Notes: generated from the letters alone by a model not told the origin. Positions 16,770 through 44,743 are shown, numbered from the stretch's first letter. The stretch: DNA of 64,000 bases from an uncultured Candidatus Saccharibacteria bacterium (GCA_964436165.1 CAYTBY010000001.1:73452-137451); one strand, 5' to 3'. Numbers and translations: made by a program.

Positions 16770-16793
16770 AAAAGCGTCCTCGCGGGACGCTTT
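16768..16793. terminator. Bidirectional terminator between convergent genes
   Basis: aaagcgtcctcgcgggacgcttt; a perfect hairpin with A/T flanks on both strands. Confidence 0.55.
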
Positions 16794-16799
16794 AGCAGC

Positions 16800-17474
16800 C
16801 TATCGATTAAAGTTTGCTATTTGTCGGTTAAGCCGAATTTCTTTCTTTTCTTCAGCTAAGTTTCGGCTTATCAGCTGATTAATTTCTTGGTGGGCTTTCA
16901 GGAGATCAACACCAGCTTGATGTTCGCTTGCCTTTAATTCTTCAACTTCGGATTGAAGTTCCTTGTTCTTGGCTTCGAGGGTTTCTTTTTGCTTTAAGGC
17001 CTCAAGAAGCTGCTCTCTAAGATTATTGTTATCAATCTTGGTTTGATTTAGTTTCGCCAGGCATTCAGTAAGGGTCTTTGCCAACTCCACATCGTCTCGA
17101 ACTTTCACACGGTGATTTCTCGGTTTTTCTGTCTCGTCAGAAGCCGTACCGACATTATCATTCATCCCTTTTCTTTTTAGGGCCGTTTTCCATGAATTGC
17201 CATCTTCGTATCCCTCCGCAAGGGCCAAGGATTTAGGCTGGCTGGAGCCTGGCACAAAATTTCCTCTCTTAAGAACAAGGATGTGGTGCTCCAAGAACTT
17301 CCTTAGGTTGATCGTAATTGACACCTGGGAAGCCCCTATAGCTTTTGCCAATTGTTTAGTGGTTGTTTCAAATCCGTTGCTAGACGAAACAGCACATTCT
17401 TTTCTCAAATAATTAATGATACTCTCGGCAACATTCTTGTGGTGTGTTTTCCTGGATGGCCGTGATTCTTGCAT
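16800..17474 (-). CDS. Putative DNA-binding protein: N-terminal wHTH-like domain plus C-terminal coiled coil
   Basis: N-terminus …LAKAIGASQVSITINLRKFLEHHILVLKRGNF (HTH-like). C-terminal heptad-rich region (LREQLLEALKQKETLEAKNKELQSEVEELK). Confidence 0.4.
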   Translation of the reverse strand: MQESRPSRKTHHKNVAESIINYLRKECAVSSSNGFETTTKQLAKAIGASQVSITINLRKFLEHHILVLKRGNFVPGSSQPKSLALAEGYEDGNSWKTALKRKGMNDNVGTASDETEKPRNHRVKVRDDVELAKTLTECLAKLNQTKIDNNNLREQLLEALKQKETLEAKNKELQSEVEELKASEHQAGVDLLKAHQEINQLISRNLAEEKKEIRLNRQIANFNR

Positions 17475-17583
17475 CAGATCCTCCTTGGGGAAGAGTGTTA
17501 AGGAACCCGAATCCTTATATTATACACGAGCTATAATATAAGTCAAGATCTATTGTCGGTGTAAATTGTGTTAAAATTCTACT

Positions 17584-19142: not shown

Positions 19143-19739
19143 ATGGGTTCAAATAAAAACCTGCAAGCCGTAGGCAATCTATCCGGGCATGAAATTATCG
19201 GGACGAGGCAGTTGGGTGAATGGCCGAAAGATGAGATGGTGCGCCTTTGGGTCAGCGTATCTTCCGGAATCGTAAAGTATGGATTTACGATAGAGTATCG
19301 TGATCTAGAGTCGCCTCGCACGGGCATATTCGATGGAATAAGAATAGTCATCGACCCAGACGTGGGGTTTGAGATGCAGTGTTTTCTTCTTCTGCACCTT
19401 TTTGGTCATTCAGTTCAATGGGTTGCTCCATCGCTTGAACATAAGCTTGGAGAACTGCAGAATACGCAGGACCAGAAGCGCTTTATGCAAGTCTTGCACG
19501 ACTACGAGTTCGAAGCGGCTAGCTTTGGTATGCAGCTTATTCGAGAGGTTGGTGTCAAGGGTCTTGATCAATGGTACAGTGATTTTGTAGCAACTGACTG
19601 GAGATATGTCGAGGGATATTATCAAACAGGTTCGTTGCCAGATTGGAAAACTTGCATAGTCCGCGACTGTCCTACTATCTTGCCGGCGCCGATTCCGAAA
19701 CTACGGCATCGTCAAGTTGAAGTACGATTTGCTTTTTAA
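19143..19739 (+). CDS. Hypothetical protein (198 aa), first gene of a GC-rich island
   Basis: ORF with clear RBS. Contains LLLHLFGHSVQW but no recognisable HExxH. GC content visibly higher than flanking genes. Confidence 0.4.
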   Translation: MGSNKNLQAVGNLSGHEIIGTRQLGEWPKDEMVRLWVSVSSGIVKYGFTIEYRDLESPRTGIFDGIRIVIDPDVGFEMQCFLLLHLFGHSVQWVAPSLEHKLGELQNTQDQKRFMQVLHDYEFEAASFGMQLIREVGVKGLDQWYSDFVATDWRYVEGYYQTGSLPDWKTCIVRDCPTILPAPIPKLRHRQVEVRFAF

Positions 19740-19842
19740 ATAGCCGCTGCTTGGTCAAGCAGCTTTTTGTTTCGGTTGACAAAAATCTTTATTTAATTTA
19801 TTATATTATTGGTTCATTTCCAAACAAAACGAAGGAGAAGCT

Positions 19843-20463
19843 GTGAAGAAGATCATAGTGTGTCTCGTTGCGGCGGTCGGAATTCTTTTGGCGGATCAGG
19901 CGCCGGCTCAAGTTCTGGCTACCGCCGAAACCGGCGGTAAAGGCAATCACGCAGTATTAGTTTCTGCTAACGGTCTTTACCCTGAAGGCCTCACTCTTTT
20001 CAACGCCTATGGGCAATATGTTTACGGACTGACTGACTATATTGATGTGACAGTAGCCTACGGCAATATTTCTGCTTTAGGTGAAAGTCAAAATTATGTT
20101 GGCCTTGGATGGAATGCTGTTCTTCTTCGGAGAAGCCAGGCTTTCGTTGATGTTTCTTTTTTCAATGTTATTACTCTGCCCTTGAGCAACAGGAGCCAAG
20201 CCTCAACAGTTGTAATGACGCCTGCGGTTGTTGTAAGCAGGCCGATGACTGTGGCCGGAAAGTCCATAACCATCTATAGCGGATTGAACTCTCTGGTTCC
20301 AATCGGAGCTACACAAAATAAATTATTTACGCCGCCCGAAACCCTTTTTAATGTTCCCATCGGCATTTCGATGCCTTTAAGTAAGAAATGGATAGTTTGT
20401 GCTGAAGTTGATCCGGGTACTAACTTGAAAACATTAGGCCTTGGTGTTGTAAGGACCTTCTAA
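19843..20463 (+). CDS. Secreted beta-rich protein (signal peptide), GTG start, hypothetical
   Basis: RBS aaggagaag before GTG. N-terminus MKKIIVCLVAAVGILLADQAPAQVLA is signal-peptide-like. Own promoter (TTGACA-17-TATTAT) and terminator. Confidence 0.5.
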   Translation: MKKIIVCLVAAVGILLADQAPAQVLATAETGGKGNHAVLVSANGLYPEGLTLFNAYGQYVYGLTDYIDVTVAYGNISALGESQNYVGLGWNAVLLRRSQAFVDVSFFNVITLPLSNRSQASTVVMTPAVVVSRPMTVAGKSITIYSGLNSLVPIGATQNKLFTPPETLFNVPIGISMPLSKKWIVCAEVDPGTNLKTLGLGVVRTF

Positions 20464-20561
20464 CCAAAATCCCGACAAGTTGTCGGGTTTTTTATTCCTA
20501 GAATTGTTGGTGTTGACACCGTCCTAACCATATGCTATCATTCTAACCGCGTTAAGGTCCT

Positions 20562-21284
20562 TTGAAAATTCAACAGGAACCTGGGAGGGCACAAGAGATG
20601 GGATTGGTGGCATCTTTGCGTAGAAATTTTATGAAAGATGAAGATAAGAATCCGTCTGCGGTGACGGTAAATTCCGGTTTAGCCGGACTTCAGGCACCGT
20701 TAGCGGGTGTTACCCCTAGATCAATATTCTCGCCATTGTCTTCACCGGCAACTCAATATCAGTCCACCGTAAATACGGCCGAGGTTGATCCTCAACTTCA
20801 TGATGCATTGCTTTCAGCGATGAATAAAGTACCGGCCCCCGGACTTCAGGAGTTGTTACTTGTCATGGATGGGCTTGCAAATAGTCTTCCTCAAAATCAA
20901 CTTTGTCAAGTTGCTCTGAATGTTGTTGCGAAAAAGAACATTACATTAGCTCAAATTCAGGATGAATTATCTAAACGTCTGGCAGCACTCGATAAAGAAA
21001 ATGATGATTTTGTTGGAGCAGCTGAACGTCAATATAGTGTTGACATCGGTTCCAAAGAATCAGCCATTGCTTCAGATGATCAGCAGATAGCAGGCCTAAA
21101 TCAACAGATCATAAGTTTACAGGAAAAGATAAGAAATTTGGAAGGGCACAAAGCCAAGCTGCAAGAAGAAAATTCTGCTAGGAAGCAGGTAATTGACAAG
21201 AAAAAGGGCGGACTTGCCGCAGCCCATGCAAAGTTAAGGCAAGACGCGGCTTCGTTGCAAAACAGAATCTCTGGCGGAAGCTAG
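20562..21284 (+). CDS. Coiled-coil protein, hypothetical
   Basis: The C-terminal half is heptad-rich (QQIISLQEKIRNLEGHKAKLQEENSARKQ). The start may be an internal ATG (MGLVASL… or MKDEDK…). Confidence 0.4.
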   Translation: MKIQQEPGRAQEMGLVASLRRNFMKDEDKNPSAVTVNSGLAGLQAPLAGVTPRSIFSPLSSPATQYQSTVNTAEVDPQLHDALLSAMNKVPAPGLQELLLVMDGLANSLPQNQLCQVALNVVAKKNITLAQIQDELSKRLAALDKENDDFVGAAERQYSVDIGSKESAIASDDQQIAGLNQQIISLQEKIRNLEGHKAKLQEENSARKQVIDKKKGGLAAAHAKLRQDAASLQNRISGGS

Positions 21285-21300
21285 AGGAAAGGAGAGACAG

Positions 21301-22356
21301 ATGGAAACAGGAACGTCGAACCCGTCCTCTCTGTCCGACTTCGTCGGCGGAAAGGTAAAAGGATTTTGGGAGCGAAAAGAAGGAACTACCGGAATGGCAG
21401 TTGTCGCTCTCGCTGCCGTTGCAATTTTTGTGGGTTGGGGAGTGATCGTGCCATTCATTGTAGCGACTCTGCTCAATACTATTTATGCCGGGATTCTCAT
21501 CGTGGCGCTTGCTTTCATGTTAGCTACCCGTGGAGTATGGGTATCCATGTTCCAGAGTGCTTGTCGGGGTTTGACCCGCCTTTGGGCGAATATCGACCCG
21601 ATTGGTATCATGGAAGAAGATTTACGGCAGGATAAAAAAGAGCTTCTTGCTTTGGATAAGAATATGGACGAGCTTTCCGGTCAGGTTGAAGGTCTTCAAA
21701 AAGATGAAGAAAGTACAAAAGATAGTATTAATCAGGCTATGCGAGCTACTAAACAGGCAAGAGACAAGATTCAATCAGGAAAATTATCTTCTGCTGATCA
21801 GGAGGCGATGAATCGTCAGTTAATGCTTAATGGCAATGATGCCACTCGTAAGCAGGATTATCTCAAGTCTTTACTAAATCTCATGTCCACCCTGAAAGAT
21901 ATTTATAAGATGGCAGAGAAATGGCGTGGTCATCTTGATTATTTAATTCAGGATCGCGAAAATTTCATCACCATTTCAAAGAAAAAGCGTAGGATGTCAA
22001 TTACTGGCAATAACATCGTGAACAGGATGAAGGGTATTCTCCATGTCGATCCCGATCGGGTATATATGCTGAATGCAGCCATTGAAGCGCAAGCAGCACA
22101 ATACAATCAGCGTGTAGGTACGATCAAGAATTTTGTACGCACTTATCGAGACACTTTAGTTAAAGGTGACTTACAGAATGAAATGCATGCTCAGCAGGCG
22201 TTGCGCCAACTTGAAGAGTGGGAACGTCAACAGGGTGAGGCTGCTATTCAGCAGATCGAATCGAGAGATTTGAGTATGGCTGAGGTACATCCTCTTGCTG
22301 TATCGGCATCGGAAGTGAAAGCTTCCACTACGGAGCGGGCGAAGTATTTTCAATGA
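21301..22356 (+). CDS. Membrane-anchored (2 TM) coiled-coil protein, possibly PspA/IM30-like
   Basis: N-terminal TM helices (MAVVALAAVAIFVGWGVIVPFIVATLL; ILIVALAFMLA), then about 250 aa of predicted helix. WANIDPIGIMEEDLRQDKKEL loosely resembles the PspA N-terminus. Coupled RBS aggagag. Confidence 0.35.
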   Translation: METGTSNPSSLSDFVGGKVKGFWERKEGTTGMAVVALAAVAIFVGWGVIVPFIVATLLNTIYAGILIVALAFMLATRGVWVSMFQSACRGLTRLWANIDPIGIMEEDLRQDKKELLALDKNMDELSGQVEGLQKDEESTKDSINQAMRATKQARDKIQSGKLSSADQEAMNRQLMLNGNDATRKQDYLKSLLNLMSTLKDIYKMAEKWRGHLDYLIQDRENFITISKKKRRMSITGNNIVNRMKGILHVDPDRVYMLNAAIEAQAAQYNQRVGTIKNFVRTYRDTLVKGDLQNEMHAQQALRQLEEWERQQGEAAIQQIESRDLSMAEVHPLAVSASEVKASTTERAKYFQ

Positions 22357-22454: not shown

Positions 22455-24029
22455 ATGATCGACTGGACCAAACCAATTCCGAAATTCGGGCGCATCCTCG
22501 TAGCGGTGCTCGTTCTCGTTATGGGCGGGCGCTATCTGTTGAGCAAGACTGGTGTCACAACCAGTTCTGGCTCAACGTCAGCTATTCCGGCGGCACCGTC
22601 ATCAGGTGGTGCGTTGTCGGGCCTGACAAATCTGTTCAGCGGCAACAAGCCGTTGACGGTCTGCACCAATACCTGGGGCGGATATGCTGCGATGTACTAC
22701 TACAACGGCGGTAACACACCGTCCAAGGACTCCCGTTTCTATAAGGAGCAGGGCGTCCAGGTCGGTTTCGTGAATATCGATCCGCTTGGAGAATCGCGCG
22801 ATGCATGGAAATCTGACAGTTGTCAGGTTCTGTGGGTCACGGTTGACAGTTTTCCAACGGAATCGGCGGACTTGGCAGGGCTGAAGCCGAAGGTTTTCGT
22901 TCAGTATGACTGGTCGCGAGGCGGCGACGTTGTTATCGGCAGCGCCTCAGTTCGTTCGGTTCGGGACTTGCGCGGGAAGAAAGTCGCAGCAGCGACTGGC
23001 TCGCCTTCAATGACCCTTCTGGCCAAGCTCTTGGAAGCCGGTAGTCTTCGATATAGCGATATCGAGTTCATCGGTACTGATTCAGCTCCGCAAGCTGCGG
23101 AATTATTTAGGGCCGGGAAGGTTGATGTGGCCGTTGTCTGGTCGCCTGACGATCAGGATGCCCTAAAGGCAGTGTCCGGTTCTCGGGTATTGATGAGCAC
23201 GAAAGACGTGCCATATGCCATTGCGGACGTTTTGTACGCGAAGGAGTCGGTCATCAACGAACGCAGGGAAGATCTGGTCGGATTTACGGCCGGAGTTCTT
23301 ACGGCGTCGGCTGAACTGAATGCCAGTTCATCGGTTCGCAAACAGGCGGCGGCAGTTCTTGCCAAGGCAATGAAGCAGGACGTCGGATTCATGGAAGGCG
23401 CCGTTGAGAACGTGAGGTTCACGACTTACGGCGACAACCTTTCATTCTTCGAGATGACGGGTACCTCCAGAGGCTCTGTTACGGGCCAGGAGCTCTACAG
23501 TCAGATGGGCGCTACGTTTGCCGAACTTGGGTTAGCTCCCAATTCCTTGCCGAGCTGGCGGTCATTGACCGACACCTCGATCTTGGAAGCGGTGGGTACG
23601 AAGCTCAAGGCGACAGGTGATCAGGCGGCCGAAGGTGCCTTCAAGTTCTCGGCGCCGACTGCCGCAGAAGCGAGTGCGGAAGCATTTGCCACCAAGCACC
23701 TAACCGTTAACTTTGCAACAGATTCAGCCGAGCTTGATCTGGCTGCCAAGAAAACGATCGACAACGCTTTGGCGGGTACGGCTAAGTCATTTGCCAGTGT
23801 TCGGGCCCGTATCGTCGGCAACACCGACAATACCGGGTCGGCTGCCCATAACAGAGAACTGTCTCAACGCCGGGCTAATGCCGTGGCCGAATATCTTGTC
23901 AGAACTTATGGGTTTGACAAGAATCGATTTACGTCGCGGGGCGACGGTCCGGATAATCCGGTTGTGCCGAATACTACGCCTGAGGGAAGAGCCCAGAACC
24001 GCAGAACCGATTTCGAGCTAACCAAGTAA
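22455..24029 (+). CDS. ABC transporter substrate-binding protein (NitT/TauT-like) fused to a C-terminal OmpA/MotB peptidoglycan-binding domain
   Basis: N-terminal TM anchor. Periplasmic-binding-protein-like middle region. C-terminal NTDNTGSAAHNRELSQRRANAVAEYLV…RAQNRRTDFEL is an OmpA_C-like signature. Confidence 0.6.
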   Translation: MIDWTKPIPKFGRILVAVLVLVMGGRYLLSKTGVTTSSGSTSAIPAAPSSGGALSGLTNLFSGNKPLTVCTNTWGGYAAMYYYNGGNTPSKDSRFYKEQGVQVGFVNIDPLGESRDAWKSDSCQVLWVTVDSFPTESADLAGLKPKVFVQYDWSRGGDVVIGSASVRSVRDLRGKKVAAATGSPSMTLLAKLLEAGSLRYSDIEFIGTDSAPQAAELFRAGKVDVAVVWSPDDQDALKAVSGSRVLMSTKDVPYAIADVLYAKESVINERREDLVGFTAGVLTASAELNASSSVRKQAAAVLAKAMKQDVGFMEGAVENVRFTTYGDNLSFFEMTGTSRGSVTGQELYSQMGATFAELGLAPNSLPSWRSLTDTSILEAVGTKLKATGDQAAEGAFKFSAPTAAEASAEAFATKHLTVNFATDSAELDLAAKKTIDNALAGTAKSFASVRARIVGNTDNTGSAAHNRELSQRRANAVAEYLVRTYGFDKNRFTSRGDGPDNPVVPNTTPEGRAQNRRTDFELTK

Positions 24030-24111: not shown

Positions 24112-24918
24112 GTGGTGAAACAACTGCTGGCGGAATTGTTCGAACTCAGAGGGAATTTATCCGGTCAAAAAAAGATCATCATTGAAGTGGTGGGAGCTAT
24201 ATTCTTATTCTTGCTTTGGAAGGTAGTGGCAGATATGGAATTGATCTCGCCTTACATCTTGCCAAAGCCGCTAAATGTTTTCTCATCTTTTGGGGAATTG
24301 TACCGCAAAGATGATCTGATAAATAATATATTGTTCTCAGTTAAGTTGAACTTAGCCGGATGTTTGGAAGCGATCATCATCTCGTTGCCTATTGGATTCG
24401 TACTGGGGCTTTTCCCGGTATTCAAGGCCTTTAGCCAGAGATATCTGAGCGCAAGCCGATTTTTGCCTCTGCCGGCGGTACTTGGGATCTTTATCGCCGG
24501 ATTTGGCATTTACGTGAACATGAAAGTCCAATTCCTGGCAGTGAGCATTATTGTTTACCTTGTACCGGTTGTAGCTCAACGCGTCTCTGAAACGCCCCAA
24601 GTTTACATCGACACGGTCAAAACGCTCGGGGCTTCAAAATGGCAGACCATCCGCTGGGTTTTTATCCCGGATGTGTTTTCCAGGGTCTGGGCTGATATCG
24701 GAGTTTTGAGCGCCATCTCCTGGACCTACATTACTATTGCTGAAAAAATAAACGATAACGAAGGCGGGATAGGAGCTCTTGCAGAAATTTCCCGCCGACA
24801 GAGCAGAATAGATAAGGTGTATGCTGTTGTCATCCTTATTGCCCTTATCGGATGGTCATTTGATAAGGTCCATGCCTGGACGGACAAACGCATGTTTAAA
24901 TTCAAAAGGAGTGCTTAA
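24112..24918 (+). CDS. ABC transporter permease (NitT/TauT family)
   Basis: GTG start with RBS aaaggaga. 6 TM. Conserved TLGASKWQTIRWVFIPDV loop typical of this permease family. Confidence 0.75.
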   Translation: MVKQLLAELFELRGNLSGQKKIIIEVVGAIFLFLLWKVVADMELISPYILPKPLNVFSSFGELYRKDDLINNILFSVKLNLAGCLEAIIISLPIGFVLGLFPVFKAFSQRYLSASRFLPLPAVLGIFIAGFGIYVNMKVQFLAVSIIVYLVPVVAQRVSETPQVYIDTVKTLGASKWQTIRWVFIPDVFSRVWADIGVLSAISWTYITIAEKINDNEGGIGALAEISRRQSRIDKVYAVVILIALIGWSFDKVHAWTDKRMFKFKRSA

Positions 24919-24919
24919 G

Positions 24920-25726
24920 ATGGGTGTTATCCAATTTGCCAACACTGAACTGCCAGATATCCTTGAACTGCGTAATGTTACCCAGAGATATGATAACGGG
25001 AATGTGGTCATTGAGAACCTGGATCTTCTTATCGAAGACCAACCCAATGTAGGCCAATTTGAGGTCATTCTGGGAATGTCAGGATGCGGTAAATCAACCC
25101 TTCTTCGGTATTTCGCCGGCCTCCAAAAGCCAACTGCGGGCGAGGTGTTCATTAAAGGACAGCCCCGCAAAGATAACGATGCTATCAGCATGGTCTTTCA
25201 GCAATATTCATCGATGCACTTTCATACGGTAATGACCAACGTTATGCTGCCCCTGATATTCAGGGGGGTAAATAAAAAGGAAGCTCAACAAAGAGCGATG
25301 GAACTTATTAATGTTGTCGGTTTGGGAGGGCATGAGAAAAAATATGCCCAGTATCCGGCTCTTTCCGGAGGTCAACTCCAGAGGGTGGCGATAGCCAGAA
25401 GCTTGATTGCCAACCCCGAGATCGTGCTAATGGATGAACCATTCGGGGCTCTGGATATCCTTACCAGGACCGGAATGCAGTTGATGATAGCAGATTTGTG
25501 GCAACGGCTGCAATCAACCATTATCTTTGTTACCCACGATATTTCCGAAGCCGTTTTTCTTGCTCAGAACATCTACATCATGGGCGGAAAGCCGGCTAAG
25601 CTCATTGAGCGTATCTCGGTTGATATTCCGTTCCCCCGCACGGTAGCAACGAAACGTTCGTCCCAATTCACAAATCTGGTGGGACAAGTAGAAGATTTAG
25701 TTCTTAGAATGAATCAAGCGGTATAA
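24920..25726 (+). CDS. ABC transporter ATP-binding protein (NitT/TauT family)
   Basis: Walker A GMSGCGKSTL. Signature LSGGQLQRVAIARSL. Walker B VLMDEPFGALD. RBS aaaggag before ATG 24920. The longer ORF from 24821 is a frame run-in. Confidence 0.85.
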   Translation: MGVIQFANTELPDILELRNVTQRYDNGNVVIENLDLLIEDQPNVGQFEVILGMSGCGKSTLLRYFAGLQKPTAGEVFIKGQPRKDNDAISMVFQQYSSMHFHTVMTNVMLPLIFRGVNKKEAQQRAMELINVVGLGGHEKKYAQYPALSGGQLQRVAIARSLIANPEIVLMDEPFGALDILTRTGMQLMIADLWQRLQSTIIFVTHDISEAVFLAQNIYIMGGKPAKLIERISVDIPFPRTVATKRSSQFTNLVGQVEDLVLRMNQAV

Positions 25727-27506: not shown

Positions 27507-28880
27507 GTGTCTAAGAATACTTACTTCCTAATAGCCATTCTCGTCGGATCTGTTTTTTTGTTTGCCTTTGTTTGGCCGGAGGCGGTCAATAAGGGCATTG
27601 ATTGGACTAACAAGCAATCGGAAAGCGTAGGCGGATTTAAGTTGCCTAAAGTTCCGGAAAAGGATTTCCAGCTGGGCCTCGACCTTCTGGGCGGAGTTCA
27701 TTTATTGTACGAGGCTGATCTGTCGAAAATTGAGGCATCGGGCAGGAATGATGCGATGCAGGGCATCCGGGATGTTATTGAACGGAGGGTTAATTTCTTT
27801 GGCGTTTCTGAACCATTAGTTCAGGTTTCGGGTGATAACCGCCTTATTGTTGAGTTAGCCGGCATAAGCGATGTTAATCAGGCGATTAAGATGATAGGCG
27901 AGACCCCGTTTCTTGAATTTAAAGAAGAGGCGCCGAATGCTCAGGAGCTGGTTGATGAATTTAAGGAAAAGCAATCGGCCGGCCAAACAAGCGAACTTGA
28001 CGGTTTTCTTCTGAATGAGCAACTATATGTTTCAACGGGGTTAAATGGCAAGCATTTAGAGCGGGCTCAGGTAGTCTTCGATCCTCAAACTAGCCAGCCC
28101 CAGGTCAGCTTAAAATTGAACGAAGAAGGGGCTCAACTTTTCGGAGAAATCACCACTCGAAATCTTGGTAAGACGGTGGCTATTTATTTGGACGGTTTAG
28201 CCATAAGTACGCCGGTTGTTCAAAGCGCGATTACTGATGGCAACGCGGTTATTACCGGCAAATTTACGCCTCAAGAATCAAAACTTCTGGCCAATCGGTT
28301 AAATTCCGGAGCTTTGCCGGTGCCTATTAAAATAATATCTCAGCAGACAGTCGGGGCTTCTTTAGGTAGCGAGTCATTGGCTAAAAGTCTAAGGGCCGGG
28401 ATTTACGGACTTATTTTTGTCGGGCTTTTCATGATAGCTTTCTATCGTTTGCCGGGATTATTCTCTGTTCTAGCCCTGTTTGTTTATGTTTTAATTGTTT
28501 TATCTATCTACAAACTACTTCCAGTTACTCTTACTCTGGCCGGTATTGCTGGTTTTATCTTGTCCCTAGGTATCGCCGTGGATGCTAATATTTTAATATT
28601 CGCCAGAATGAAGGAAGAGCTATCGGCTGGAAAAACTCTGGCTTCATCAATGAGGGAAGGATTCTCGCGGGCTTGGCTTTCTATTCGGGACAGCCATGTT
28701 ACCACTCTTCTTGGAGCAGGAGTGCTTTACATCTTTACGACCTCGATTGTAAAAGGTTTTGCTTTGACTCTCAGCATCGGCGTTCTGATCAGTCTGTTCA
28801 CGGCTATTATGGTCACCAGATCCTTCTTATTATTATGTACTAGCACTTGGTTCGAGTCTAAAAAGTGGCTGTTCAGATAA
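27507..28880 (+). CDS. secD: Protein translocase subunit SecD
   Basis: GTG start. N-terminal TM, large periplasmic domain, then C-terminal 5-TM bundle (…GIAVDANILIFARMKEE…). Confidence 0.85.
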   Translation: MSKNTYFLIAILVGSVFLFAFVWPEAVNKGIDWTNKQSESVGGFKLPKVPEKDFQLGLDLLGGVHLLYEADLSKIEASGRNDAMQGIRDVIERRVNFFGVSEPLVQVSGDNRLIVELAGISDVNQAIKMIGETPFLEFKEEAPNAQELVDEFKEKQSAGQTSELDGFLLNEQLYVSTGLNGKHLERAQVVFDPQTSQPQVSLKLNEEGAQLFGEITTRNLGKTVAIYLDGLAISTPVVQSAITDGNAVITGKFTPQESKLLANRLNSGALPVPIKIISQQTVGASLGSESLAKSLRAGIYGLIFVGLFMIAFYRLPGLFSVLALFVYVLIVLSIYKLLPVTLTLAGIAGFILSLGIAVDANILIFARMKEELSAGKTLASSMREGFSRAWLSIRDSHVTTLLGAGVLYIFTTSIVKGFALTLSIGVLISLFTAIMVTRSFLLLCTSTWFESKKWLFR

Positions 28881-28882
28881 TT

Positions 28883-29782
28883 ATGTCAAAAATTTACACA
28901 ATTATGTTTTTTGTTTCGATGGGTCTAACTCTAGGAGCAATTGTTTTGTTTTTAATTTTCGGTTTAAACTTTGGAGTTGATTTTCGGGGCGGCAGTATTG
29001 TGGAATTAGAGTTTTCGAATGAGAAACCGCCGGTTGCTGATGTCCAGGCATATTTAGAAAAAGGTTTATCACTCCACGACTTTAGCTTTAACGAAGTCGG
29101 AGAAATGGGATTGGTGATCAGGTCCGGTAATTTATCCGAAGAAGACCATCAGCAGTTACTAAATATTTTGAAAGAAAAATATTCTGACCAGACGATTGAG
29201 GAAAAGCGGTTTGATTCGGTCGGGCCGATTGTTGGCCAAGAACTTAAAGACATGAGCGTCCGGGGTATAATCATAGCCCTCTTGGTTATAATAATGTATA
29301 TCGCTTATGTTTTCAGGAAGATGTCAGTTGTTTTGTCTTCTTGGGCCATGAGCGTTTCGGCCATGGTTGCTCTTGCCCATGATATTATTATTCCGATTGG
29401 AGTTTTTTCTTGGCTGGGCTATTTTTATAATGTTGAAATAAGCGCCGTCTTCGTGGCTGCCTTATTGACAATCTTGGGTTATTCTGTTTCAGATACAGTA
29501 GTCATATTTGACAGGGTTAGGGAAAATGTTATAAGAAATAGATTGAGGGAGGATTTTGGCAAGGTTGTCCACAAGAGTATTTTTCAAACTCTCACCCGAT
29601 CCCTGAATACGACCTTTACTACCCTCCTGTCATTGATTGCTATTTATCTGTTCGGGGGAGAGAGTCTGAGATATTTTGCCCTGGCTTTGATAATCGGTAT
29701 TTTCTTGGGAGCCTATTCTTCGATATTTGTCGCTTCGCCATTGCTGGTTTGGTGGTCGGGATGGACAAAAAAGAATAGGTAG
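28883..29782 (+). CDS. secF: Protein translocase subunit SecF
   Basis: DFRGGSIVELEF, …VIFDRVREN…; immediately follows secD. An in-frame upstream ATG at 28865 overlaps the secD stop. Confidence 0.85.
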   Translation: MSKIYTIMFFVSMGLTLGAIVLFLIFGLNFGVDFRGGSIVELEFSNEKPPVADVQAYLEKGLSLHDFSFNEVGEMGLVIRSGNLSEEDHQQLLNILKEKYSDQTIEEKRFDSVGPIVGQELKDMSVRGIIIALLVIIMYIAYVFRKMSVVLSSWAMSVSAMVALAHDIIIPIGVFSWLGYFYNVEISAVFVAALLTILGYSVSDTVVIFDRVRENVIRNRLREDFGKVVHKSIFQTLTRSLNTTFTTLLSLIAIYLFGGESLRYFALALIIGIFLGAYSSIFVASPLLVWWSGWTKKNR

Positions 29783-29812: not shown

Positions 29813-30961
29813 TTGACTTCTATAACTAATAATGCTATTGTATGTGGAGGTACAATAGACTATCATAGGGTCATGTCAAATCAAGCAGTAATAACCAAAA
29901 CGGTCGCTTCTTTGGTAAAAAATATATCAACTCGCAACAAGGATATTATATCCAGGCGTTTTGGTTTGAAAACAGGCAAAAAGGAGACTCTGGAGTCGAT
30001 AGGCAAGAGCTATGGAATTACCAGGGAAAGAGTAAGGCAGATAGAGGAATTTTCCATTAACCAGTTGTCTAAGGTTGTTGCTTCGACTCCCGATGTTTCA
30101 AAATACGTTTCTTTGGCCAAGGAAATACTAGGCGGTAACGGGGGGGTGATGAGGGAGGCTGAGTTATTTAAAGCATTTAGCGGAAACGATAAGGAGAGTG
30201 TTGTAAATGCCTCGCTTGTTTTTATTCTTTCTCTGGCCGGCGAGCCTGCCTCGCCGACTCGCCTCGCCGAAGCCTCCGGCGTAGCGCGGGCAGGCGGGCC
30301 GGTAAGATTCGGTGAAAACGAGTCATACTATTCCTTCTGGGGTTTAAATAGGGAAAGTGCCGATATGTTTAAAAATGGGATTTCTGCCCTGGTCAGTTCA
30401 TTTGCAAAAAACGGAAGCCCGGTGGCTTATACCGACTTGGTTTCTTTTGCCCAGGCTAACAGCATCTCAAATTCTAAAGACGTTGTGGTTTATTTGAATT
30501 TGAGCAAGGAGCTTGGAAGAAATGTTTTTGGCCAAATTGGTTTAGCCAGTTGGGCCGAAGTAAAACCAAAAGGAGTCAGAGATAAAGCCTATTTGGTTTT
30601 GAAGAAAGAGAAAAATCCAAAACACTTTACCGAGATTGCCAAACTTATAAACTCAACCGGTTTTTCTGATAAGAGAGCTAATGTTCAGACTGTTCATAAC
30701 GAACTGATTAAGGATAAAAGATTCGTTTTAGTCGGCCGTGGAATGTATGGGTTATCGGAATGGGGTTATCAGCCGGGTACGGTCAAAGAAGTGTTGGTCA
30801 GCGTTCTCAAGAACCATGGCAAGCCCTTAGCCAAGGCCGAACTTGTGGCCAAGGTTTTGGATACCCGAATGGTCAAAGAAAACACAATATTATTAAATCT
30901 TCAGGATTCTAAAGTTTTTTCAAAACGGGAAGACGGAACTTACGTCTTAAAAAAGGCGTAA
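29813..30961 (+). CDS. Putative transcription factor: sigma-70 region-4-like HTH near the N-terminus plus C-terminal HARE-HTH-like domain
   Basis: TLESIGKSYGITRERVRQIEE is a sigma-70 region 4.2-type motif. C-terminal WGYQPGTVKEVLVSVLKNHGKPLAKAELVAKVL…FSKREDGTYVLKK is a HARE-HTH-like pattern. The probable start is ATG 29873. Confidence 0.45.
   Translation: MTSITNNAIVCGGTIDYHRVMSNQAVITKTVASLVKNISTRNKDIISRRFGLKTGKKETLESIGKSYGITRERVRQIEEFSINQLSKVVASTPDVSKYVSLAKEILGGNGGVMREAELFKAFSGNDKESVVNASLVFILSLAGEPASPTRLAEASGVARAGGPVRFGENESYYSFWGLNRESADMFKNGISALVSSFAKNGSPVAYTDLVSFAQANSISNSKDVVVYLNLSKELGRNVFGQIGLASWAEVKPKGVRDKAYLVLKKEKNPKHFTEIAKLINSTGFSDKRANVQTVHNELIKDKRFVLVGRGMYGLSEWGYQPGTVKEVLVSVLKNHGKPLAKAELVAKVLDTRMVKENTILLNLQDSKVFSKREDGTYVLKKA
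30233..30305 (+). repeat. GC-rich palindromic element inserted in frame in the 29813 gene (encodes LAGEPASPTRLAEASGVARAGGPV)
   Basis: ggccggcgagcctgcc…cgccgaagcctccggcg…ggcaggcgggccgg has nested inverted repeats. About 75% GC inside an approximately 38% GC gene. Confidence 0.5.
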
Positions 30962-31061
30962 AGATAATGCAAATCAACGAATGACATGCGAATGCTACAA
31001 ATAAACATTCGCGGTATTCGCATATATTTGTAGATTAGCATTATGTAATGAGCTTCAGCGA

Positions 31062-32315
31062 ATGACTTCTTTTCTTTTAATACTAAATACTTTTAAGACG
31101 GTCTTTGTCCTCCTTATCTCCATTTGGTGGCTTTACTTACCTGTCTTTTTATTTTTACTATCCTATCTCGCCGTTAAAAACTATACTAATCTCAAATACC
31201 GCCTCTCTCTTGAGTGGACACTTCTTGAAATAAAAGTTCCAAAAGAAAATCGAAAAAGCCCCAAGGCGATGGAGCAGATTTTTGCCGGTTTACATGGCGT
31301 TTATACTATTAAAAAAAAGTGGCATAAGATATTTTTTAAGGGCGAGATGCTGGCTTGGTTCTCTTTTGAAATAGTTGGCAAGGGTGGTGAGACCCACTTT
31401 TATGTAAGAACTCAAACTGAATACAAGAATGTGGTAGAAGCCCAGATATATGCCCAGTATCCGGAGGCAGAAGTCGTTGAGTCGGTTGACTACATTAATG
31501 ATCTGCCCCTCTATTTGCCTGATGATAAATATGACCTGTGGGGAACTGAGCTAATTTTAAACAAGGAGGATGCCTATCCAATAAGAACTTATCCTGAATT
31601 TGAAGAAAAAGGAACCGGTCCGGAAGATGCAAAAAGAGTAGATCCAATGGCATCTATATCTGAGCTTTGCAGTACTCTTCACGCCGGTGAGCAGATCTGG
31701 CTTCAAATAATAGGTACTCCGATAGGAGATGATTGGATAAAGAAAGGCCAGGCCGTACTTGATAAGCTTATGGGTAAGGAAGCGGTCAAAAGCGGAAACT
31801 TTCTTTCTGATATGGTTTTTGCCATAGATAAGGCAATTAGCGGAATCGGCAGTGTTCCGGTTGATAAAAAAGAAGAAAGGAAAGAGAGAGTTAACTTAAG
31901 TCCAGGCAAAGAGGATATAATGAAGGCCATGGAAAAAAGCTGGGATAAGCTTGGGTATCAAACCGGCATCAGGTATTTATATATCGGACCTAAAGATAAT
32001 TTCCATCAATCCCACGTCGCCGGTATTAACGGTGCTTTTCGGCAGTTCTCTTCCCAAAATTTAAATGGTTTCAAATCGAATAAATACACCATAACTCACG
32101 CTAGAGGCTTATTTAAAAATTCAAAACTTTTAACGAGAAAGAAGGCCATTTATCAGGCATTTAGGGAGAGGCAGGTCATGCTTTTTAAATATGTGCTTAA
32201 TACTGAAGAATTAGCTACTATTTACCACTTACCGGATATTGGAGTCAGGGCGCCGTTATTGCCTAGAGTTGAGGCCAAGAGAGGTGAACCCCCGGTAGGA
32301 TTGCCAATTACATGA
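31062..32315 (+). CDS. Membrane protein (N-terminal 2 TM plus large soluble domain), partner of the downstream ATPase
   Basis: ORF overlaps the next gene by ATGA (32312). Hydrophobic N-terminus FVLLISIWWLYLPVFLFLLSYLAV. Confidence 0.45.
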   Translation: MTSFLLILNTFKTVFVLLISIWWLYLPVFLFLLSYLAVKNYTNLKYRLSLEWTLLEIKVPKENRKSPKAMEQIFAGLHGVYTIKKKWHKIFFKGEMLAWFSFEIVGKGGETHFYVRTQTEYKNVVEAQIYAQYPEAEVVESVDYINDLPLYLPDDKYDLWGTELILNKEDAYPIRTYPEFEEKGTGPEDAKRVDPMASISELCSTLHAGEQIWLQIIGTPIGDDWIKKGQAVLDKLMGKEAVKSGNFLSDMVFAIDKAISGIGSVPVDKKEERKERVNLSPGKEDIMKAMEKSWDKLGYQTGIRYLYIGPKDNFHQSHVAGINGAFRQFSSQNLNGFKSNKYTITHARGLFKNSKLLTRKKAIYQAFRERQVMLFKYVLNTEELATIYHLPDIGVRAPLLPRVEAKRGEPPVGLPIT

Positions 32316-34093
32316 TTAAAAAAGATAAAGATATTGTTGTTATCGGTGAGACGAATTTTCGCAATCAGCGTTGGCGATTTGGCATAAAAGAAGATGACCG
32401 TCGGCGCCATATGTATGTGGTTGGTTCAACGGGAATGGGCAAGACAGAATTCTTGAAGAATATGGCCATTCAGGACATTGAAGCCGGCCGGGGCCTTGCC
32501 TTTATTGACCCTCACGGCGATTCAGCCGATGCCCTTCTTGACTATATTCCAAAAGAAAGAATAAAAGATGTCATTTATTTGGATCCTGGCGATCTGTCTT
32601 TTCCGATTGCTTTCAATGTGATGGAAAAAGTTGATTTTGAGTTCAGGCATTTGGTTGCTTCCGGCTTGCTTGGTGTATTTAAGAAAATATTCGGCATTGA
32701 GGTTTGGTCGGGAAGGATGGAATATATTTTAAATAATACTATCTTGGCCTTGCTAGAATATCCAGATGCGACTCTACTCGGCATAAATAAGTTATTGTCC
32801 AATAAGGAGTATAGGAGAAAGGTGGTTGATAATGTAAAAGACCCGATAGTAAAGTCATTTTGGGTTGATGAGTTTGCAAAATATACAGAAAGATTTGCCG
32901 CCGAAGCGACGCCGGCTATTCAGAATAAGATCGGTCAGTTTATTTCTAACAATCTTATTCGCAATATCATCGGCCAAGTCCATTCGACTATTGATATCAG
33001 AAAGATAATGGATGAGGGCAAAATTTTAATAGTCAATATTTCCCGCGGTAAAATAGGGGAGGACGCTTCGCGTTTGCTTGGTGCTCTTTTAGTAACCAAG
33101 ATTCAGCTTGCCGCCATGTCGCGGGTTGATATTCCGGAGAACCAGAGAACGGACTTCTATCTGTATGTAGATGAGTTTCAGCACTTTGCCACAGAGTCAT
33201 TTGCTAACATTTTATCAGAAGCCAGGAAATACCATTTAAGTTTAATTATGGCTCATCAATATATAAAGCAGATGGAAGAACATGTGATGGATGCGGTTTT
33301 TGGCAATGTTGGTACGATTGTATCTTTTAGGGTTGGTGCGGAGGATGGCGAATTTTTGGAAAAATGGTTTCAGCCTGATTTCATGATGAATGATATTGTC
33401 AATCTTGGTAAATATAATATTTACATAAAGTTAATGATAGACGGCGTTTCTTCAAGAGGTTTTTCGGCGGCGACTATCCCGCCCCTTCCCGAGCTTGAAA
33501 AGTCGAATCGGGAAGAAGTGGTTGACTATTCAAGAAAAACATATGCTACCTCAAGAGAAATTGTTGAGAAAAGTATTGCCGAATGGGCGGGAATGGATGG
33601 TGAGGAGCATAAAAAAGAAGGCTACAGCGGACCAAGGCCGGACTCAAGACCTAGACAGCCATATGCGACATTTGAAAGACGGGGGGAACCGTCACAATTT
33701 CAAAATCAGCGTCCACAGCAGTCATTTAATCGGCCACCAGCTCCTCTCCCTAGTCAACTCATTAGGCCACAACCAGGGTCAGTTCAACCGCAAACCATAC
33801 CTCAGATACAACCTCAACCAGTGCAACCCAAGTTTGAACAGAAACCGCAGGTCCAGTTACAGTCTAAATCGGAACCAGCCCAATCACAACGACTGAGCGA
33901 AGAGCGAGGGAGTACTGAGCATAGAAATGCGAATGTACCCTCATCCGGGCTACCTTTAAATGAAGCCCTTAAAACCGGTCCGGTTAATTTTCGTGGCAGG
34001 AGGATAGAAGATAAAAGAGAAAAACCAAAAATTGAAGTTGATACAGATGCTCTCAAGAAGATCTTGGATGAGGCGATGGGAAAAAAGGAATAG
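32312..34093 (+). CDS. TraD/VirD4-like (type IV coupling protein / FtsK-HerA superfamily) ATPase with C-terminal P/Q-rich low-complexity tail
   Basis: Walker A VVGSTGMGKT. FIDPHGD, a DPxGD-type motif of TrwB/TraD-like proteins. Walker B LYVDEFQHF. …MAHQYIKQM. Confidence 0.55.
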   Translation: MIKKDKDIVVIGETNFRNQRWRFGIKEDDRRRHMYVVGSTGMGKTEFLKNMAIQDIEAGRGLAFIDPHGDSADALLDYIPKERIKDVIYLDPGDLSFPIAFNVMEKVDFEFRHLVASGLLGVFKKIFGIEVWSGRMEYILNNTILALLEYPDATLLGINKLLSNKEYRRKVVDNVKDPIVKSFWVDEFAKYTERFAAEATPAIQNKIGQFISNNLIRNIIGQVHSTIDIRKIMDEGKILIVNISRGKIGEDASRLLGALLVTKIQLAAMSRVDIPENQRTDFYLYVDEFQHFATESFANILSEARKYHLSLIMAHQYIKQMEEHVMDAVFGNVGTIVSFRVGAEDGEFLEKWFQPDFMMNDIVNLGKYNIYIKLMIDGVSSRGFSAATIPPLPELEKSNREEVVDYSRKTYATSREIVEKSIAEWAGMDGEEHKKEGYSGPRPDSRPRQPYATFERRGEPSQFQNQRPQQSFNRPPAPLPSQLIRPQPGSVQPQTIPQIQPQPVQPKFEQKPQVQLQSKSEPAQSQRLSEERGSTEHRNANVPSSGLPLNEALKTGPVNFRGRRIEDKREKPKIEVDTDALKKILDEAMGKKE

Positions 34094-34180: not shown

Positions 34181-34525
34181 ATGGAAGACCAGAAGGCACT
34201 TAAGGCGGTGGGTATTTATGAGCAGTATTTTATAACTCATGATATTCCGAATATAAAACATCCTCATAATGAATTTTTTCGTAATGTGAATGAGGCATTG
34301 GCTCATTGTCACAGCATGATAAAGGGGATAAAAGACTTTCTTTCCATTGATGGTATGGAAAAAAGAGCCGCACAACGCATTGGTTTTATTGAGGGATGTC
34401 TTGCTACTGCTGGCAAGGTTACAGTAGAGACGTTGAAGGCGTATAATCGTCCCGAAGAAGGCACAATTAGCGAGATAACCCACGAGCCATTAACCTACGA
34501 AGATTTACATGATTGGGAATATTAG
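34181..34525 (+). CDS. Hypothetical protein (114 aa)
   Basis: Strong RBS gaggagg 7 nt upstream of the ATG. No recognisable motifs. Confidence 0.4.
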   Translation: MEDQKALKAVGIYEQYFITHDIPNIKHPHNEFFRNVNEALAHCHSMIKGIKDFLSIDGMEKRAAQRIGFIEGCLATAGKVTVETLKAYNRPEEGTISEITHEPLTYEDLHDWEY

Positions 34526-34661
34526 TCTCTCGTACTACAGCTCTTGCAAAATGCAGGGGCTTTTCTTTTATGTTTTAAAAATGTATTATTTTAGTATCAA
34601 CTTTTTAATTTTGAATTATAATTTTGCATTTTGATTTTTTAATTTTAAATTTATTAAAACC

Positions 34662-44656: not shown

Positions 44657-44667
44657 ATCATTCAAAC

Positions 44668-44740
44668 GTAACTAGTAATTAGTAACTAGTAATTAGAAAA
44701 TTTAAGTATATTCAATTACCAATTACCAATTACCAATTAC
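44668..44740. repeat. Intergenic tandem repeats: 2 x TAACTAGTAATTAG, then 4 x CAATTAC (opposite orientation of the GTAATT core)
   Basis: gtaactagtaattagtaactagtaattag … caattaccaattaccaattaccaattac. Confidence 0.7.
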
Positions 44741-44743
44741 TCT

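Follow-up and report, generated by a model that had tools for sequence, protein, structure and literature searches.

Coupling proteins (T4CPs) normally feed DNA into bacterial conjugation machines. TrwB (R388), TraD (F) and VirD4 share a TraG-D_C region, a C-terminal tail that varies but ends in a docking motif, and a P-loop motor of the FtsK–HerA superfamily whose Walker A and Walker B motifs flank an all-alpha domain. VirB3–VirB4 (TrwM–TrwK of R388) have a two-helix membrane hairpin and then a cytoplasmic N-domain ahead of the ATPase. The closest relatives of the proteins described here that have an informative annotated gene context are the 886–914-aa 'DUF87 domain-containing' T4CPs of Bacillus plasmids (NZ_CP032854, NZ_OX419581). 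In Patescibacteria, 5,713 VirD4-type homologues have been counted in 2,918 of 3,035 genomes, only 148 of them near virB4 (Quinonero-Coronel et al. 2025, PMC12102498). This survey of HMM counts left function open and did not describe a PF26449 partner, a split/fusion relationship, a σ4/HARE-HTH neighbour or synteny with secDF. Its orphan homologues, which like the ATPase studied here are abundant, chromosomal and far from virB4, are probably the same proteins as the family of that ATPase, or a subset of them.

The unit described here consists of three genes within a 64-kb window, by which we mean the whole stretch of DNA analysed, from an uncultured Candidatus Saccharibacteria bacterium. We read genes 2 and 3 as the two separated parts of one T4CP, now a fixed resident of the chromosome, most likely with a Patescibacteria T4SS encoded elsewhere as its channel, and give this reading a probability of roughly 0.55. 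The features of the locus, with the basis of each in brackets, are as follows.

27507-28880, + strand: secD (Pfam SecDF_P1_head, SecD_1st and SecD_SecF_C, for the secD/secF pair)
28865-29782, + strand: secF, directly 5' of the three-gene unit (the same Pfam SecDF families)
29873..30961 (ORF opens at TTG 29813), + strand: gene 1, σ70 region-4 and HARE-HTH DNA-binding protein (Pfam)
30964..31044, + strand: long imperfect hairpin between genes 1 and 2, not followed by a T-run (folding energy; inverted repeats I1, I2, I4)
31062..32315, + strand: gene 2, PF26449 protein, 417 aa (Pfam family of homologues, hydropathy, AF2 model)
32196-32312, + strand: conserved C-terminal peptide EELATIYHxPD...GEPPVGLP of gene 2 (homologue comparison)
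32312..34093, + strand: gene 3, TrwB/VirD4-type ATPase subunit, 593 aa, no TM segment (Pfam, PDB sequence matches, hhalign, fold search)
32423-32446, + strand: Walker A of gene 3 (motif)
32636-33013, + strand: all-alpha insertion of gene 3 (predicted helices)
33158-33175, + strand: Walker B of gene 3 (motif)
33617-34090, + strand: variable tail of gene 3 (composition/alignment)
34031-34090, + strand: conserved terminal helix motif of gene 3 (tail motif comparison)
34181-34525, + strand: orf114, no family, same species only
34539-34570, + strand: terminator-like hairpin and U-run after orf114 (GC-rich stem, then UUUUCUUUU)

The three ORFs (29813-30961, 31062-32315 and 32312-34093, all on the + strand) are placed as in an earlier sequence-only reading of the window. 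Genes 2 and 3, which that reading took to be translationally coupled, share a 4-nt ATGA overlap (32312-32315), but the arrangement is not conserved, relatives having gaps of 3–640 bp. Further downstream, orf114 has no match in Pfam or NCBIfam and among the loci compared is found only in that of the same species; the interval between gene 3 and orf114 contains no significant hairpin (z -1.1), and the terminator-like hairpin at 34539-34570 may mark the end of the transcription unit.

The product of gene 3 belongs with the TrwB/TraD/VirD4-type coupling proteins, as had been proposed from its motifs, all of which are present (Walker A GSTGMGKT at aa 38-45, DPHGD at 66-70, Walker B YLYVDE at 283-288 and AHQ at 314-316). 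TrwB_AAD_bind (PF10412) scores 33.5 bits against a Pfam cut-off of 20.5 and TraG-D_C is likewise above its cut-off, the best PDB sequence matches are to DotL, which ranks first, and to TrwB, and an hhalign comparison with TrwB reaches 95.7% probability (E 9e-9) across 267 columns that include the stretch from Walker A to Walker B. Used as a plain phmmer query, TrwB recovers all 71 family ATPases in the loci compared, and Walker A/B, Q316 and other core residues are invariant across the family. A fold search with the gene 3 model, of low confidence as a whole (pLDDT 61.5), places TrwB, DotL and Cag-beta on top, with HerA structures below the T4CPs. Eight helices are predicted at aa 109-234, between the Walker motifs, where pLDDT is 74-88 (a prediction only). 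The P/Q-rich tail reported earlier is real in that aa 436-593 are 27% P+Q against 5% in the core, but this richness is lineage-specific and the conserved parts are short motifs at the tail end, where the helix motif VDxxxLKKxLEExLKK is seen in most lineages sampled. Unlike TrwB, TraD and VirD4, the chain lacks an N-terminal transmembrane domain, having no hydrophobic window; the anchor belongs to the separate 417-aa protein, which carries a large extra domain, and the unit is chromosomal, with core-gene-like conservation and no relaxase or T4SS genes nearby.

Other assignments of the ATPase were tried and rejected. As a VirB4 it fails on hhalign of its profile against TrwK (0.5% probability) and on the VirB4 CTD in the fold search (E 0.09), and CagE_TrbE_VirB (PF03135) has no Pfam match on the gene 2 or gene 3 product. 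As an FtsK/SpoIIIE it has no motor- or gamma-domain Pfam match at E <= 0.01, and no FtsK chain occurs among the PDB sequence or fold matches. Against a HerA-NurA repair helicase stand a DUF87 score of only 27.5 bits, below the T4CP model, the rank of HerA, and the absence of NurA from the window. That DUF87 score, the place of HerA next after the T4CPs in the fold search, a PADLOC mad8 match of 55 bits with weak HerA matches, the similarity of the σ4 part of gene 1 to MzaA, and the Dnd-type restriction or defence-like neighbourhoods of full-length gene 1 relatives outside the CPR all speak for the alternative of a repair helicase of the HerA type, or an ATPase of anti-phage defence (HerA/MADS-like), coupled to a HARE-HTH sensor of DNA modification. 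This is disfavoured, and seems to us very improbable: T4CP profiles and structures outscore HerA, no NurA, Sir2, methyltransferase or other effector was found, and core-gene-like conservation in fixed synteny is unlike defence islands.

Homologues of gene 2 carry PF26449, a family mentioned by no paper found in the literature searched. The single hydrophobic stretch of the product (aa 1-39, encoded at 31062-31178; hydropathy) is the sole such segment in the gene 2/3 pair and agrees with its earlier description as a membrane protein, but the protein is more than a partner, being homologous to the N-terminal half of the fused Bacillus T4CPs. The AF2 model (pLDDT 80) has an N-terminal membrane hairpin and a cytoplasmic domain, an order also found in VirB3–VirB4, and its top 13 Foldseek matches are all full-length TrwK/VirB4 chains (E 2e-5, probability 1.0), with no CTD-only VirB4 entry and no other P-loop ATPase in the top 50. 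The likeness to the VirB4-NTD is at the level of fold only (TM 0.31-0.38); sequence profiles give no support, no sequence-level likeness of the N-domain to TrwK, TrsE or TrsD was found, and, unlike in VirB3–VirB4, the ATPase half is TrwB-type.

By homology, the PF26449 protein and the ATPase are parts of one machine, the former being its N-terminal half on a separate chain, a recognition that is new here. An 886-aa B. subtilis plasmid protein carries both halves, collinear with genes 2 and 3, the PF26449 profile aligning to its aa 34-302 (hhalign 97.6%, E 3e-12) and the ATPase profile to its aa 319-724 (99.8%, E 6e-28), and the fusion joint lies in the linker just past the conserved EELAxIxxxP motif. 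The fused gene heads a Tcp-type conjugation cluster, followed by Replic_Relax (relaxase-like), TcpC, TcpE and a VirB4-like ATPase, and so has the linkage to a relaxase-like gene and T4SS genes that is a feature of T4CPs. The Bacillus proteins differ in being single polypeptides with no obvious N-terminal membrane hairpin and an acidic tail, borne on plasmids beside the Replic_Relax gene and transfer cluster, whereas here there are two chains, a basic/PQ tail and a chromosomal location; a split pair is also present on a plasmid of the haloarchaeon Haladaptatus. From these alignments we read the gene 2 product as the membrane-anchor and N-domain subunit of a split T4CP.

Conservation was assessed in 79 Patescibacteria species loci with a PF26449 gene, and the three-gene unit holds together in relatives, with 68 collinear triads. 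In 76 loci the PF26449 gene is preceded by the σ4/HARE-HTH gene, and in 71 it is followed by the ATPase gene; in the remaining eight the ATPase is non-adjacent and YceG or NusA follows the PF26449 gene. secDF immediately precedes the unit, in the same orientation, in 42-45 of the 79. Compared with the window, the ATPase has a median identity of 60.7%, SecD of 50.9% and SecF of 40.9%, and the ATPase core is thus more conserved than SecD. Across many ultra-small Patescibacteria the unit keeps a fixed chromosomal place amid housekeeping genes, and it is most likely a vertically inherited, domesticated, split T4CP. The notion that it is instead left over from, or carried as cargo by, an integrated conjugative or mobilisable element, to which the plasmid conjugation clusters around its informative homologues and a tRNA-Lys gene 3.5 kb downstream might point, is largely refuted by retention of the post-secDF position in about 45 species, by ATPase conservation exceeding that of SecD, by a G+C content equal to that of the flanks, by 64 kb without an integrase, relaxase or other transfer gene, and by the failure to find relatives on IMG/VR viral contigs.

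The same conservation and synteny would also suit a split T4CP that works without a T4SS, as a housekeeping membrane DNA translocase recruited by the σ4/HARE-HTH protein, for instance in FtsK-like clearance of the chromosome at division or in import of host-derived DNA. Such a role is possible but doubtful. It gains from the presence of T4CP homologues in nearly all Patescibacteria genomes with only 148 of 5,713 near virB4, in a survey whose authors leave room for exaptation (PMC12102498), and from the label 'FtsK/SpoIIIE-like' given to a homologue in one JGI annotation. Against it, the unit encodes no channel-forming partner and no FtsK_SpoIIIE or gamma domain, and the gap in prevalence between T4CP and VirB4 (96% vs 80%) is explicable, by arithmetic only, if each genome has two T4CP copies and the MAGs are incomplete.

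Gene 1 carries the two domains ascribed to it by the sequence-only reading, both above Pfam cut-offs: Sigma70_r4 at aa 39-85 (E 4e-10; encoded at 29927-30067) and HARE-HTH at aa 257-317 (E 3e-11; encoded at 30581-30763). It probably starts at ATG 29873, giving 362 aa rather than the 382-aa ORF from TTG 29813, because homologues are 337-356 aa long and alignments begin at about residue 21 of that ORF; all of them contain PF04545 and PF05066. It is not a σ70-family sigma factor, since Pfam, NCBIfam (scores all far under their respective cut-offs) and PDB find region 4 only and no region 2, the PDB matches being confined to region 4 of SigA/RpoD. Nor is it the RNA polymerase δ subunit (RpoE), as its score of 39.1 bits falls short of the TIGR04567 cut-off (42) and the HARE-HTH is C-terminal, not N-terminal. 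Neither a nuclease nor a relaxase domain is present in the product, which could be a regulator of the ordinary kind or a protein associated with RNA polymerase.

The split T4CP might recruit proteins instead of DNA, as DotL does, in which case gene 1 would be just a transcriptional regulator or an RNA polymerase-associated protein that is syntenic by chance. DotL is the best PDB sequence match of the ATPase, the tail has short docking motifs like those of adaptor-binding T4CP tails, both gene 1 domains have RNA polymerase-binding relatives (σ region 4 and the δ subunit), Patescibacteria have few relaxases (109, in 103 genomes; PMC12102498) and protein export by the T4SS has been suggested by Wang et al. 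(PMC10633639). We nevertheless consider a protein substrate unlikely, as the adjacency of gene 1 to the PF26449 gene in 76/79 loci, even without the ATPase, is a tighter linkage than is usual for a bystander, and the fused Bacillus homologue has a relaxase-like DNA-processing gene as its partner.

The spacer between genes 1 and 2 had been described as rich in gcgaatg/cattcgc inverted repeats. These do form a real hairpin (MFE -32.9 vs -21.4 kcal/mol for shuffles; z -3.7; 0/200 shuffles equal), but GCGAATG, the heptamer, is no commoner in the window than expected (7 copies vs 8.4) and the repeats are neither conserved nor specific to the operon: a similar repeat-built hairpin lies at a second intergenic site (44657-44743), and the spacers of relatives have other repeat-built hairpins or are 0-40 bp long, with no sequence conservation of the repeats.

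The three-gene module, which the sequence-only reading suggested may be a minimal unit for DNA uptake or export, has no channel of its own. The earlier observation that relaxase, VirB4 and pilin genes are missing nearby extends to the whole window: none of the 47 ORFs scanned with Pfam, which include every window ORF of at least 150 aa, has a relaxase, VirB4, ComEC, NurA or integrase domain, a prepilin-type motif is absent from all frames, and the rest of the window consists of housekeeping genes. A search of limited sensitivity found no VirB4-like ORF within about 8 kb at the 79 loci. Because of this lack of T4SS, relaxase or pilin genes within 64 kb and of VirB4-like ORFs within about 8 kb, the link of the split T4CP to a T4SS is put forward as a proposal. 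An obvious candidate, and most likely the channel, is the VirB4-centred T4SS encoded elsewhere by Patescibacteria (PMC12102498). In favour of this reading, the VirD4-type homologues found in 2,918 of 3,035 Patescibacteria genomes lie near virB4 in only 148 cases (PMC12102498), and the Southlakia T4SS cluster has no recognisable coupling protein (PMC10633639); counting against it, the Southlakia T4CP homologue, a candidate relative of the gene 3 family, is not essential whereas the T4SS is (PMC12102498).

In the split T4CP that we favour, the PF26449 subunit would, on its predicted model, combine a membrane hairpin with a cytoplasmic domain of VirB4-N-terminal-like fold, and its membrane segment (gene 2 aa 1-39) may anchor the ATPase in trans. 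The 593-aa subunit would supply a TrwB-type motor, with intact Walker motifs, the all-alpha domain between them and a flexible tail with short, conserved docking motifs at its end. Reasoning from TrwB, TraD and DotL, we infer that the motor forms a ring at the membrane, takes up its substrate via the all-alpha domain and tail, and passes it to a membrane channel by NTP hydrolysis. This substrate is most likely DNA or a DNA–protein complex, because the σ4/HARE-HTH protein encoded immediately upstream is most likely a DNA-binding adaptor or regulator.

More tentatively, a conjugation T4CP may have been domesticated early in Patescibacteria into a core, conjugation-independent machine, a membrane-anchored split motor recruited to DNA by the σ4/HARE-HTH protein, in which the PF26449 half keeps a VirB3–VirB4-N-domain-like module. 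If this is true, the machine might, for example, be a port or motor for acquisition of host DNA, or for chromosome handling at the membrane, in cells unable to make nucleotides, and the PF26449/ATPase family, because its PF26449 half would keep that module, would be an evolutionary intermediate between VirB4 and VirD4.

The reading best supported by the analysis is that genes 2 and 3 constitute a vertically inherited, split type IV coupling protein (T4CP). The operon proposed in the sequence-only reading is correct, with three ORFs on one strand and an ATGA overlap joining genes 2 and 3:

29813-30961, + strand: gene 1 ORF, with Sigma70_r4 and HARE-HTH domains, both above the Pfam cut-offs
31062-32315, + strand: gene 2, encoding a 417-aa protein; PF26449, a precomputed family, is assigned in all of its database homologues
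32312-34093, + strand: gene 3, encoding a 593-aa ATPase with Walker A, DPHGD, Walker B and AHQ motifs and a P/Q-rich tail

The earlier description of gene 1 as a sigma-70 region 4 combined with a HARE-HTH agrees with these Pfam assignments, and the NCBIfam and PDB matches of its product are restricted to σ region 4. Homologues, 337-356 aa long, begin to align at about residue 21, which makes ATG 29873 the probable start in place of TTG 29813. Within the gene, a G+C-rich, partly palindromic in-frame segment (30236-30306) encodes PASPTRLAEASGVARAGG; it adds 11 aa relative to the nearest relatives, is missing in others and corresponds to a variable loop separating the two HTH domains. Non-CPR full-length relatives are embedded in larger proteins on a Pontibrevibacter plasmid (locus L089, 6603-9656) and an Abditibacteriota plasmid (L088, 26-1732), one of them adjoining a DNA-phosphorothioation (Dnd) restriction cluster and the other preceding several hypothetical proteins of very large size.

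Gene 3 had been assigned to the TrwB/TraD/VirD4 type on motifs that were all located, and this class is borne out by several comparisons. Its Pfam scores place TrwB_AAD_bind first (33.5 bits), ahead of DUF87 (27.5) and TraG-D_C (27.2), and the closest PDB sequences are DotL/IcmO (2e-6) and TrwB (1e-4). In hhalign, the ATPase family profile matches R388 TrwB at 95.7% (E 9e-9) over 267 columns, from Walker A to beyond Walker B, as against 0.5% for TrwK/VirB4 and 2.4% for pGO1 TrsK, and phmmer with TrwB as query recovers 71 family ATPases among the fetched loci. The overall quality of the AF2 model is low (pLDDT 61.5, falling below 50 at residues 295-387), and it was used as supporting evidence only; aa 40-290 are acceptable and include an all-helical insertion between the Walker motifs (aa 109-234). 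For this model Foldseek places TrwB, DotL and Cag-beta at the top, then HerA, with the VirB4 C-domain far lower. From these results gene 3 is classified, by sequence and predicted fold, as a T4CP-type motor rather than HerA, FtsK or VirB4, and no hydrophobic segment was found in its product. A HerA/NurA reading of the unit is disfavoured by the domain scores and by context, as there is no NurA domain among the 47 Pfam-scanned ORFs of the window (all of at least 150 aa). An FtsK reading of gene 3 was rejected on the same two grounds. The PADLOC mad8 model scores 55 bits on gene 3, but other components of a defence system are absent, and an anti-phage defence reading was rejected on domain scores and context; the hit has no ready interpretation, as the MADS preprint text leaves mad8 without annotation.

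For gene 2, the local Pfam and NCBIfam copies gave no family and the PDB no sequence match; its only hydrophobic stretch is aa 1-39. Its place in the unit emerged from a tblastn search of annotated plasmids, where it matched the N-terminal part of large ‘DUF87 domain-containing’ Bacillus plasmid proteins. One of these, an 886-aa protein of the B. subtilis plasmid NZ_CP032854, is collinear with both family profiles: aa 34-302 match PF26449 (97.6%, E 3e-12) and aa 319-724 match the ATPase (99.8%, E 6e-28), the joint falling just past a conserved EELAxIxxxP motif which also terminates the CPR gene 2 product. The fused gene stands at the head of a transfer cluster in which Replic_Relax, TcpC, TcpE and VirB4-like ATPase genes come next, and a second plasmid has the same layout. 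A split form is found on a Haladaptatus megaplasmid, where a gene for a 350-aa protein precedes one for a 930-aa protein annotated as a T4CP. On the strength of the collinear fusion and this split pair, genes 2 and 3 are taken, at the level of sequence, to be two parts of one machine that is either fused or split at the linker. The fused forms came from the plasmid search; a separate PF26449 profile search of 1.84 billion proteins gave 3,066 cluster representatives at 50% identity, and among the 150 matches listed no fusion was seen within CPR, all being stand-alone proteins of ~320-550 aa. Literature searches for PF26449 or for DUF8128, which we take to be the name of this family, returned no papers.

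In the AF2 model of the gene 2 product, which is good (pLDDT 80, pTM 0.75), an N-terminal pair of helices (aa 2-49) leads into alpha/beta domains, and the C-terminal peptide is disordered yet highly conserved. Lys/Arg residues after the hydrophobic segment suggest, by the positive-inside rule, that the large domain is cytoplasmic. The best Foldseek matches in the PDB are 13 full-length TrwK/VirB4 chains of R388 (E 2e-5 to 6e-4, probability 0.99-1.0, TM 0.31-0.38). Since neither C-domain-only VirB4 entries nor other P-loop ATPases appear in the top 50, we infer that the modelled match is to the VirB4 N-domain. A link to VirB4 or TrsD at the sequence level was rejected: profile comparisons of two PF26449 alignments (A1 and A4) with TrwK, TrsE and TrsD were empty, as was a profile search against PDB sequences.

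The long P/Q-rich tail noted earlier is present in the window's ATPase, but this composition is specific to lineages (P/Q fraction 0.05 to 0.30) and not a general feature. What is kept past the variable disordered linker, in most lineages sampled, is an amphipathic helix motif, (V/I)(D/N)xxxL(K/R)xx(L/I)(E/D)(E/K)(A/S)(L/M)KK, to which many lineages, the window's not among them, add a terminal xPG(E/Q/D)x(I/V)(K/E)(F/L) motif. Among the C-termini compared (loci L007-L080), IKPGEVIKF is an example of the latter, and a ‘GPVNF/EPISF’ motif occurs upstream of the conserved helix. The Bacillus fused T4CP ends in INFDDLLV, similar to the CPR terminal motif. TraD binds TraM, and DotL its adaptors, through short tethered motifs of this kind, and by this analogy the tail motifs of gene 3 may serve in docking, with the σ4/HARE-HTH neighbour as the first candidate partner.

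Conservation of the unit was assessed by scanning GTDB species genomes with a PF26449 alignment. Of at least 587 relatives, the 79 best loci were analysed, and all of these come from MAGs of Patescibacteria type (labelled Yanofsky-, Terry-, Sung-, Wolfe-, Nealson-, Portnoy-, Moran-, Magasanik- and Buchananbacteria, and Microsyncoccus). The three genes are collinear on one strand in 68 of the 79, as the sequence-only reading would expect of a genuine unit; the σ4/HARE-HTH gene is immediately upstream of the PF26449 gene in 76, the ATPase immediately downstream in 71, and secD-secF directly upstream in 42-45. Where the ATPase is non-adjacent (8/79), a YceG or NusA gene stands next instead and genes 1 and 2 are still together; the ATPase gene lies outside the locus in L060, L064, L074, L075 and L076, with YceG/MltG, and in L011 and L021, with NusA. 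In the 39 loci with all five genes, median identity to the window is 60.7% for the ATPase, 50.9% for SecD, 40.9% for SecF, 38.1% for the PF26449 protein and 37.2% for the σ4/HARE-HTH protein. As judged from the first two values, the motor is more tightly constrained than a core secretion protein.

The window is a chromosome segment from Patescibacteria (CPR), and its homologues point to the Yanofskybacteria/Paceibacteria type. The G+C content of the unit equals that of its flanks, and the window encodes housekeeping functions: SecA, SecD, SecF, Mur ligases, Ddl, MraY and FtsW, together with an aminoacyl-tRNA synthetase, UvrB, RuvA and peptidases. The absence of nearby relaxase, VirB4 and pilin genes was confirmed, as no VirB4, relaxase, ComEC or integrase domain was found in the 47 scanned ORFs and no prepilin motif in any frame of the window. 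That the unit belongs to a mobile element is thus disfavoured by domain scores and by this housekeeping context, and no relatives were found in IMG/VR viral contigs.

Several features elsewhere in the window may be recorded here. An ORF at 22455-24029 with 54% G+C (against ~41% for the window) encodes an NMT1-like substrate-binding domain and a C-terminal OmpA domain; with the ABC permease and ATPase that follow (24112-25726), it is possibly a transporter gained by horizontal transfer. A PD-(D/E)XK nuclease ORF and a 479-aa protein with RNase_H_2 and Cas4-like (DUF83) domains occupy 16017-19023, and a 172-aa protein with a PaaX_M/Cas2-like domain lies at 49105-49623; no CRISPR array was seen in a tandem-repeat scan of the window. 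Four consecutive same-strand ORFs (198, 206, 240 and 351 aa) at 19143-22356 have no Pfam family, and the 3′ end of an unannotated ORF (58476-59321) contains 18-48 bp tandem repeats (59112-59312) that encode a Thr/Pro-rich segment.

The gcgaatg/cattcgc inverted repeats reported upstream of gene 2 do form a long imperfect hairpin (30964-31044, z -3.7), with no T-run after it. GCGAATG as an operon-specific operator was rejected: the heptamer is neither enriched in the window nor conserved in relatives, whose gene 1-gene 2 spacers are 0-40 bp or carry hairpins built from entirely different short repeats, and a similar hairpin (44657-44743, z -4.3) lies between unrelated genes. The structure is of a generic intergenic type in these genomes. 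Tandem heptamer arrays occur between genes at 44657-44743 (GTAATTA/CAATTAC, with complementary arms that fold into the hairpin), 34602-34652 (TTTTGAA) and 63-113 (CAAATCC), and the spacer of locus L002 uses AAATCCG/CGGATTT likewise; such repeat-built hairpins look like a genome-wide class. A canonical terminator-like hairpin follows orf114 (34181-34525), at ~34539-34570.

In the split T4CP that we favour, the PF26449 subunit would anchor, and perhaps dock, the complex, and the ATPase would be the TrwB-type motor, binding substrate through its all-alpha domain and carrying short motifs on its tail. The preferred substrate would be DNA bound by the gene 1 product, acting as adaptor, and the preferred channel a distant type IV secretion system (T4SS). 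The main rival to this reading is a housekeeping DNA translocase working on its own. The minimal uptake or export module of the sequence-only reading stands as a hypothesis. Quinonero-Coronel et al. (2025, PMC12102498) counted 5,713 VirD4-type homologues in 2,918 of 3,035 Patescibacteria genomes, just 148 of them near virB4, and VirB4 in 2,417 genomes. The difference in prevalence (96% vs 80%) is no evidence of T4SS independence, because by our own arithmetic two copies against one in MAGs ~80% complete would give the same gap. The same study found a Southlakia T4CP homologue to be non-essential and held that exaptation ‘cannot be ruled out’, and the Southlakia T4SS cluster, essential in the one strain tested, is without a recognisable coupling protein or relaxase (Wang et al. 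2023, PMC10633639). Orphan T4CP homologues are counted in thousands without proposed partners or role (PMC12102498), and the PF26449 partner, the fusion and the linkage to σ4/HARE-HTH and secDF appear in neither paper.

The analysis shows that ATPases of this family are accompanied by a conserved membrane/N-domain subunit, that the two T4CP halves form one polypeptide in genuine conjugation systems, and that a DNA-binding protein of σ4/HARE-HTH type is in close linkage with them. The long-T4CP architecture, with its possibly VirB4-like N-domain, bears on the divergence of VirB4 and VirD4. A large part of bacterial diversity belongs to Patescibacteria, which depend on hosts for nucleotides, and in these organisms a list of HMM hits becomes a defined three-component module.
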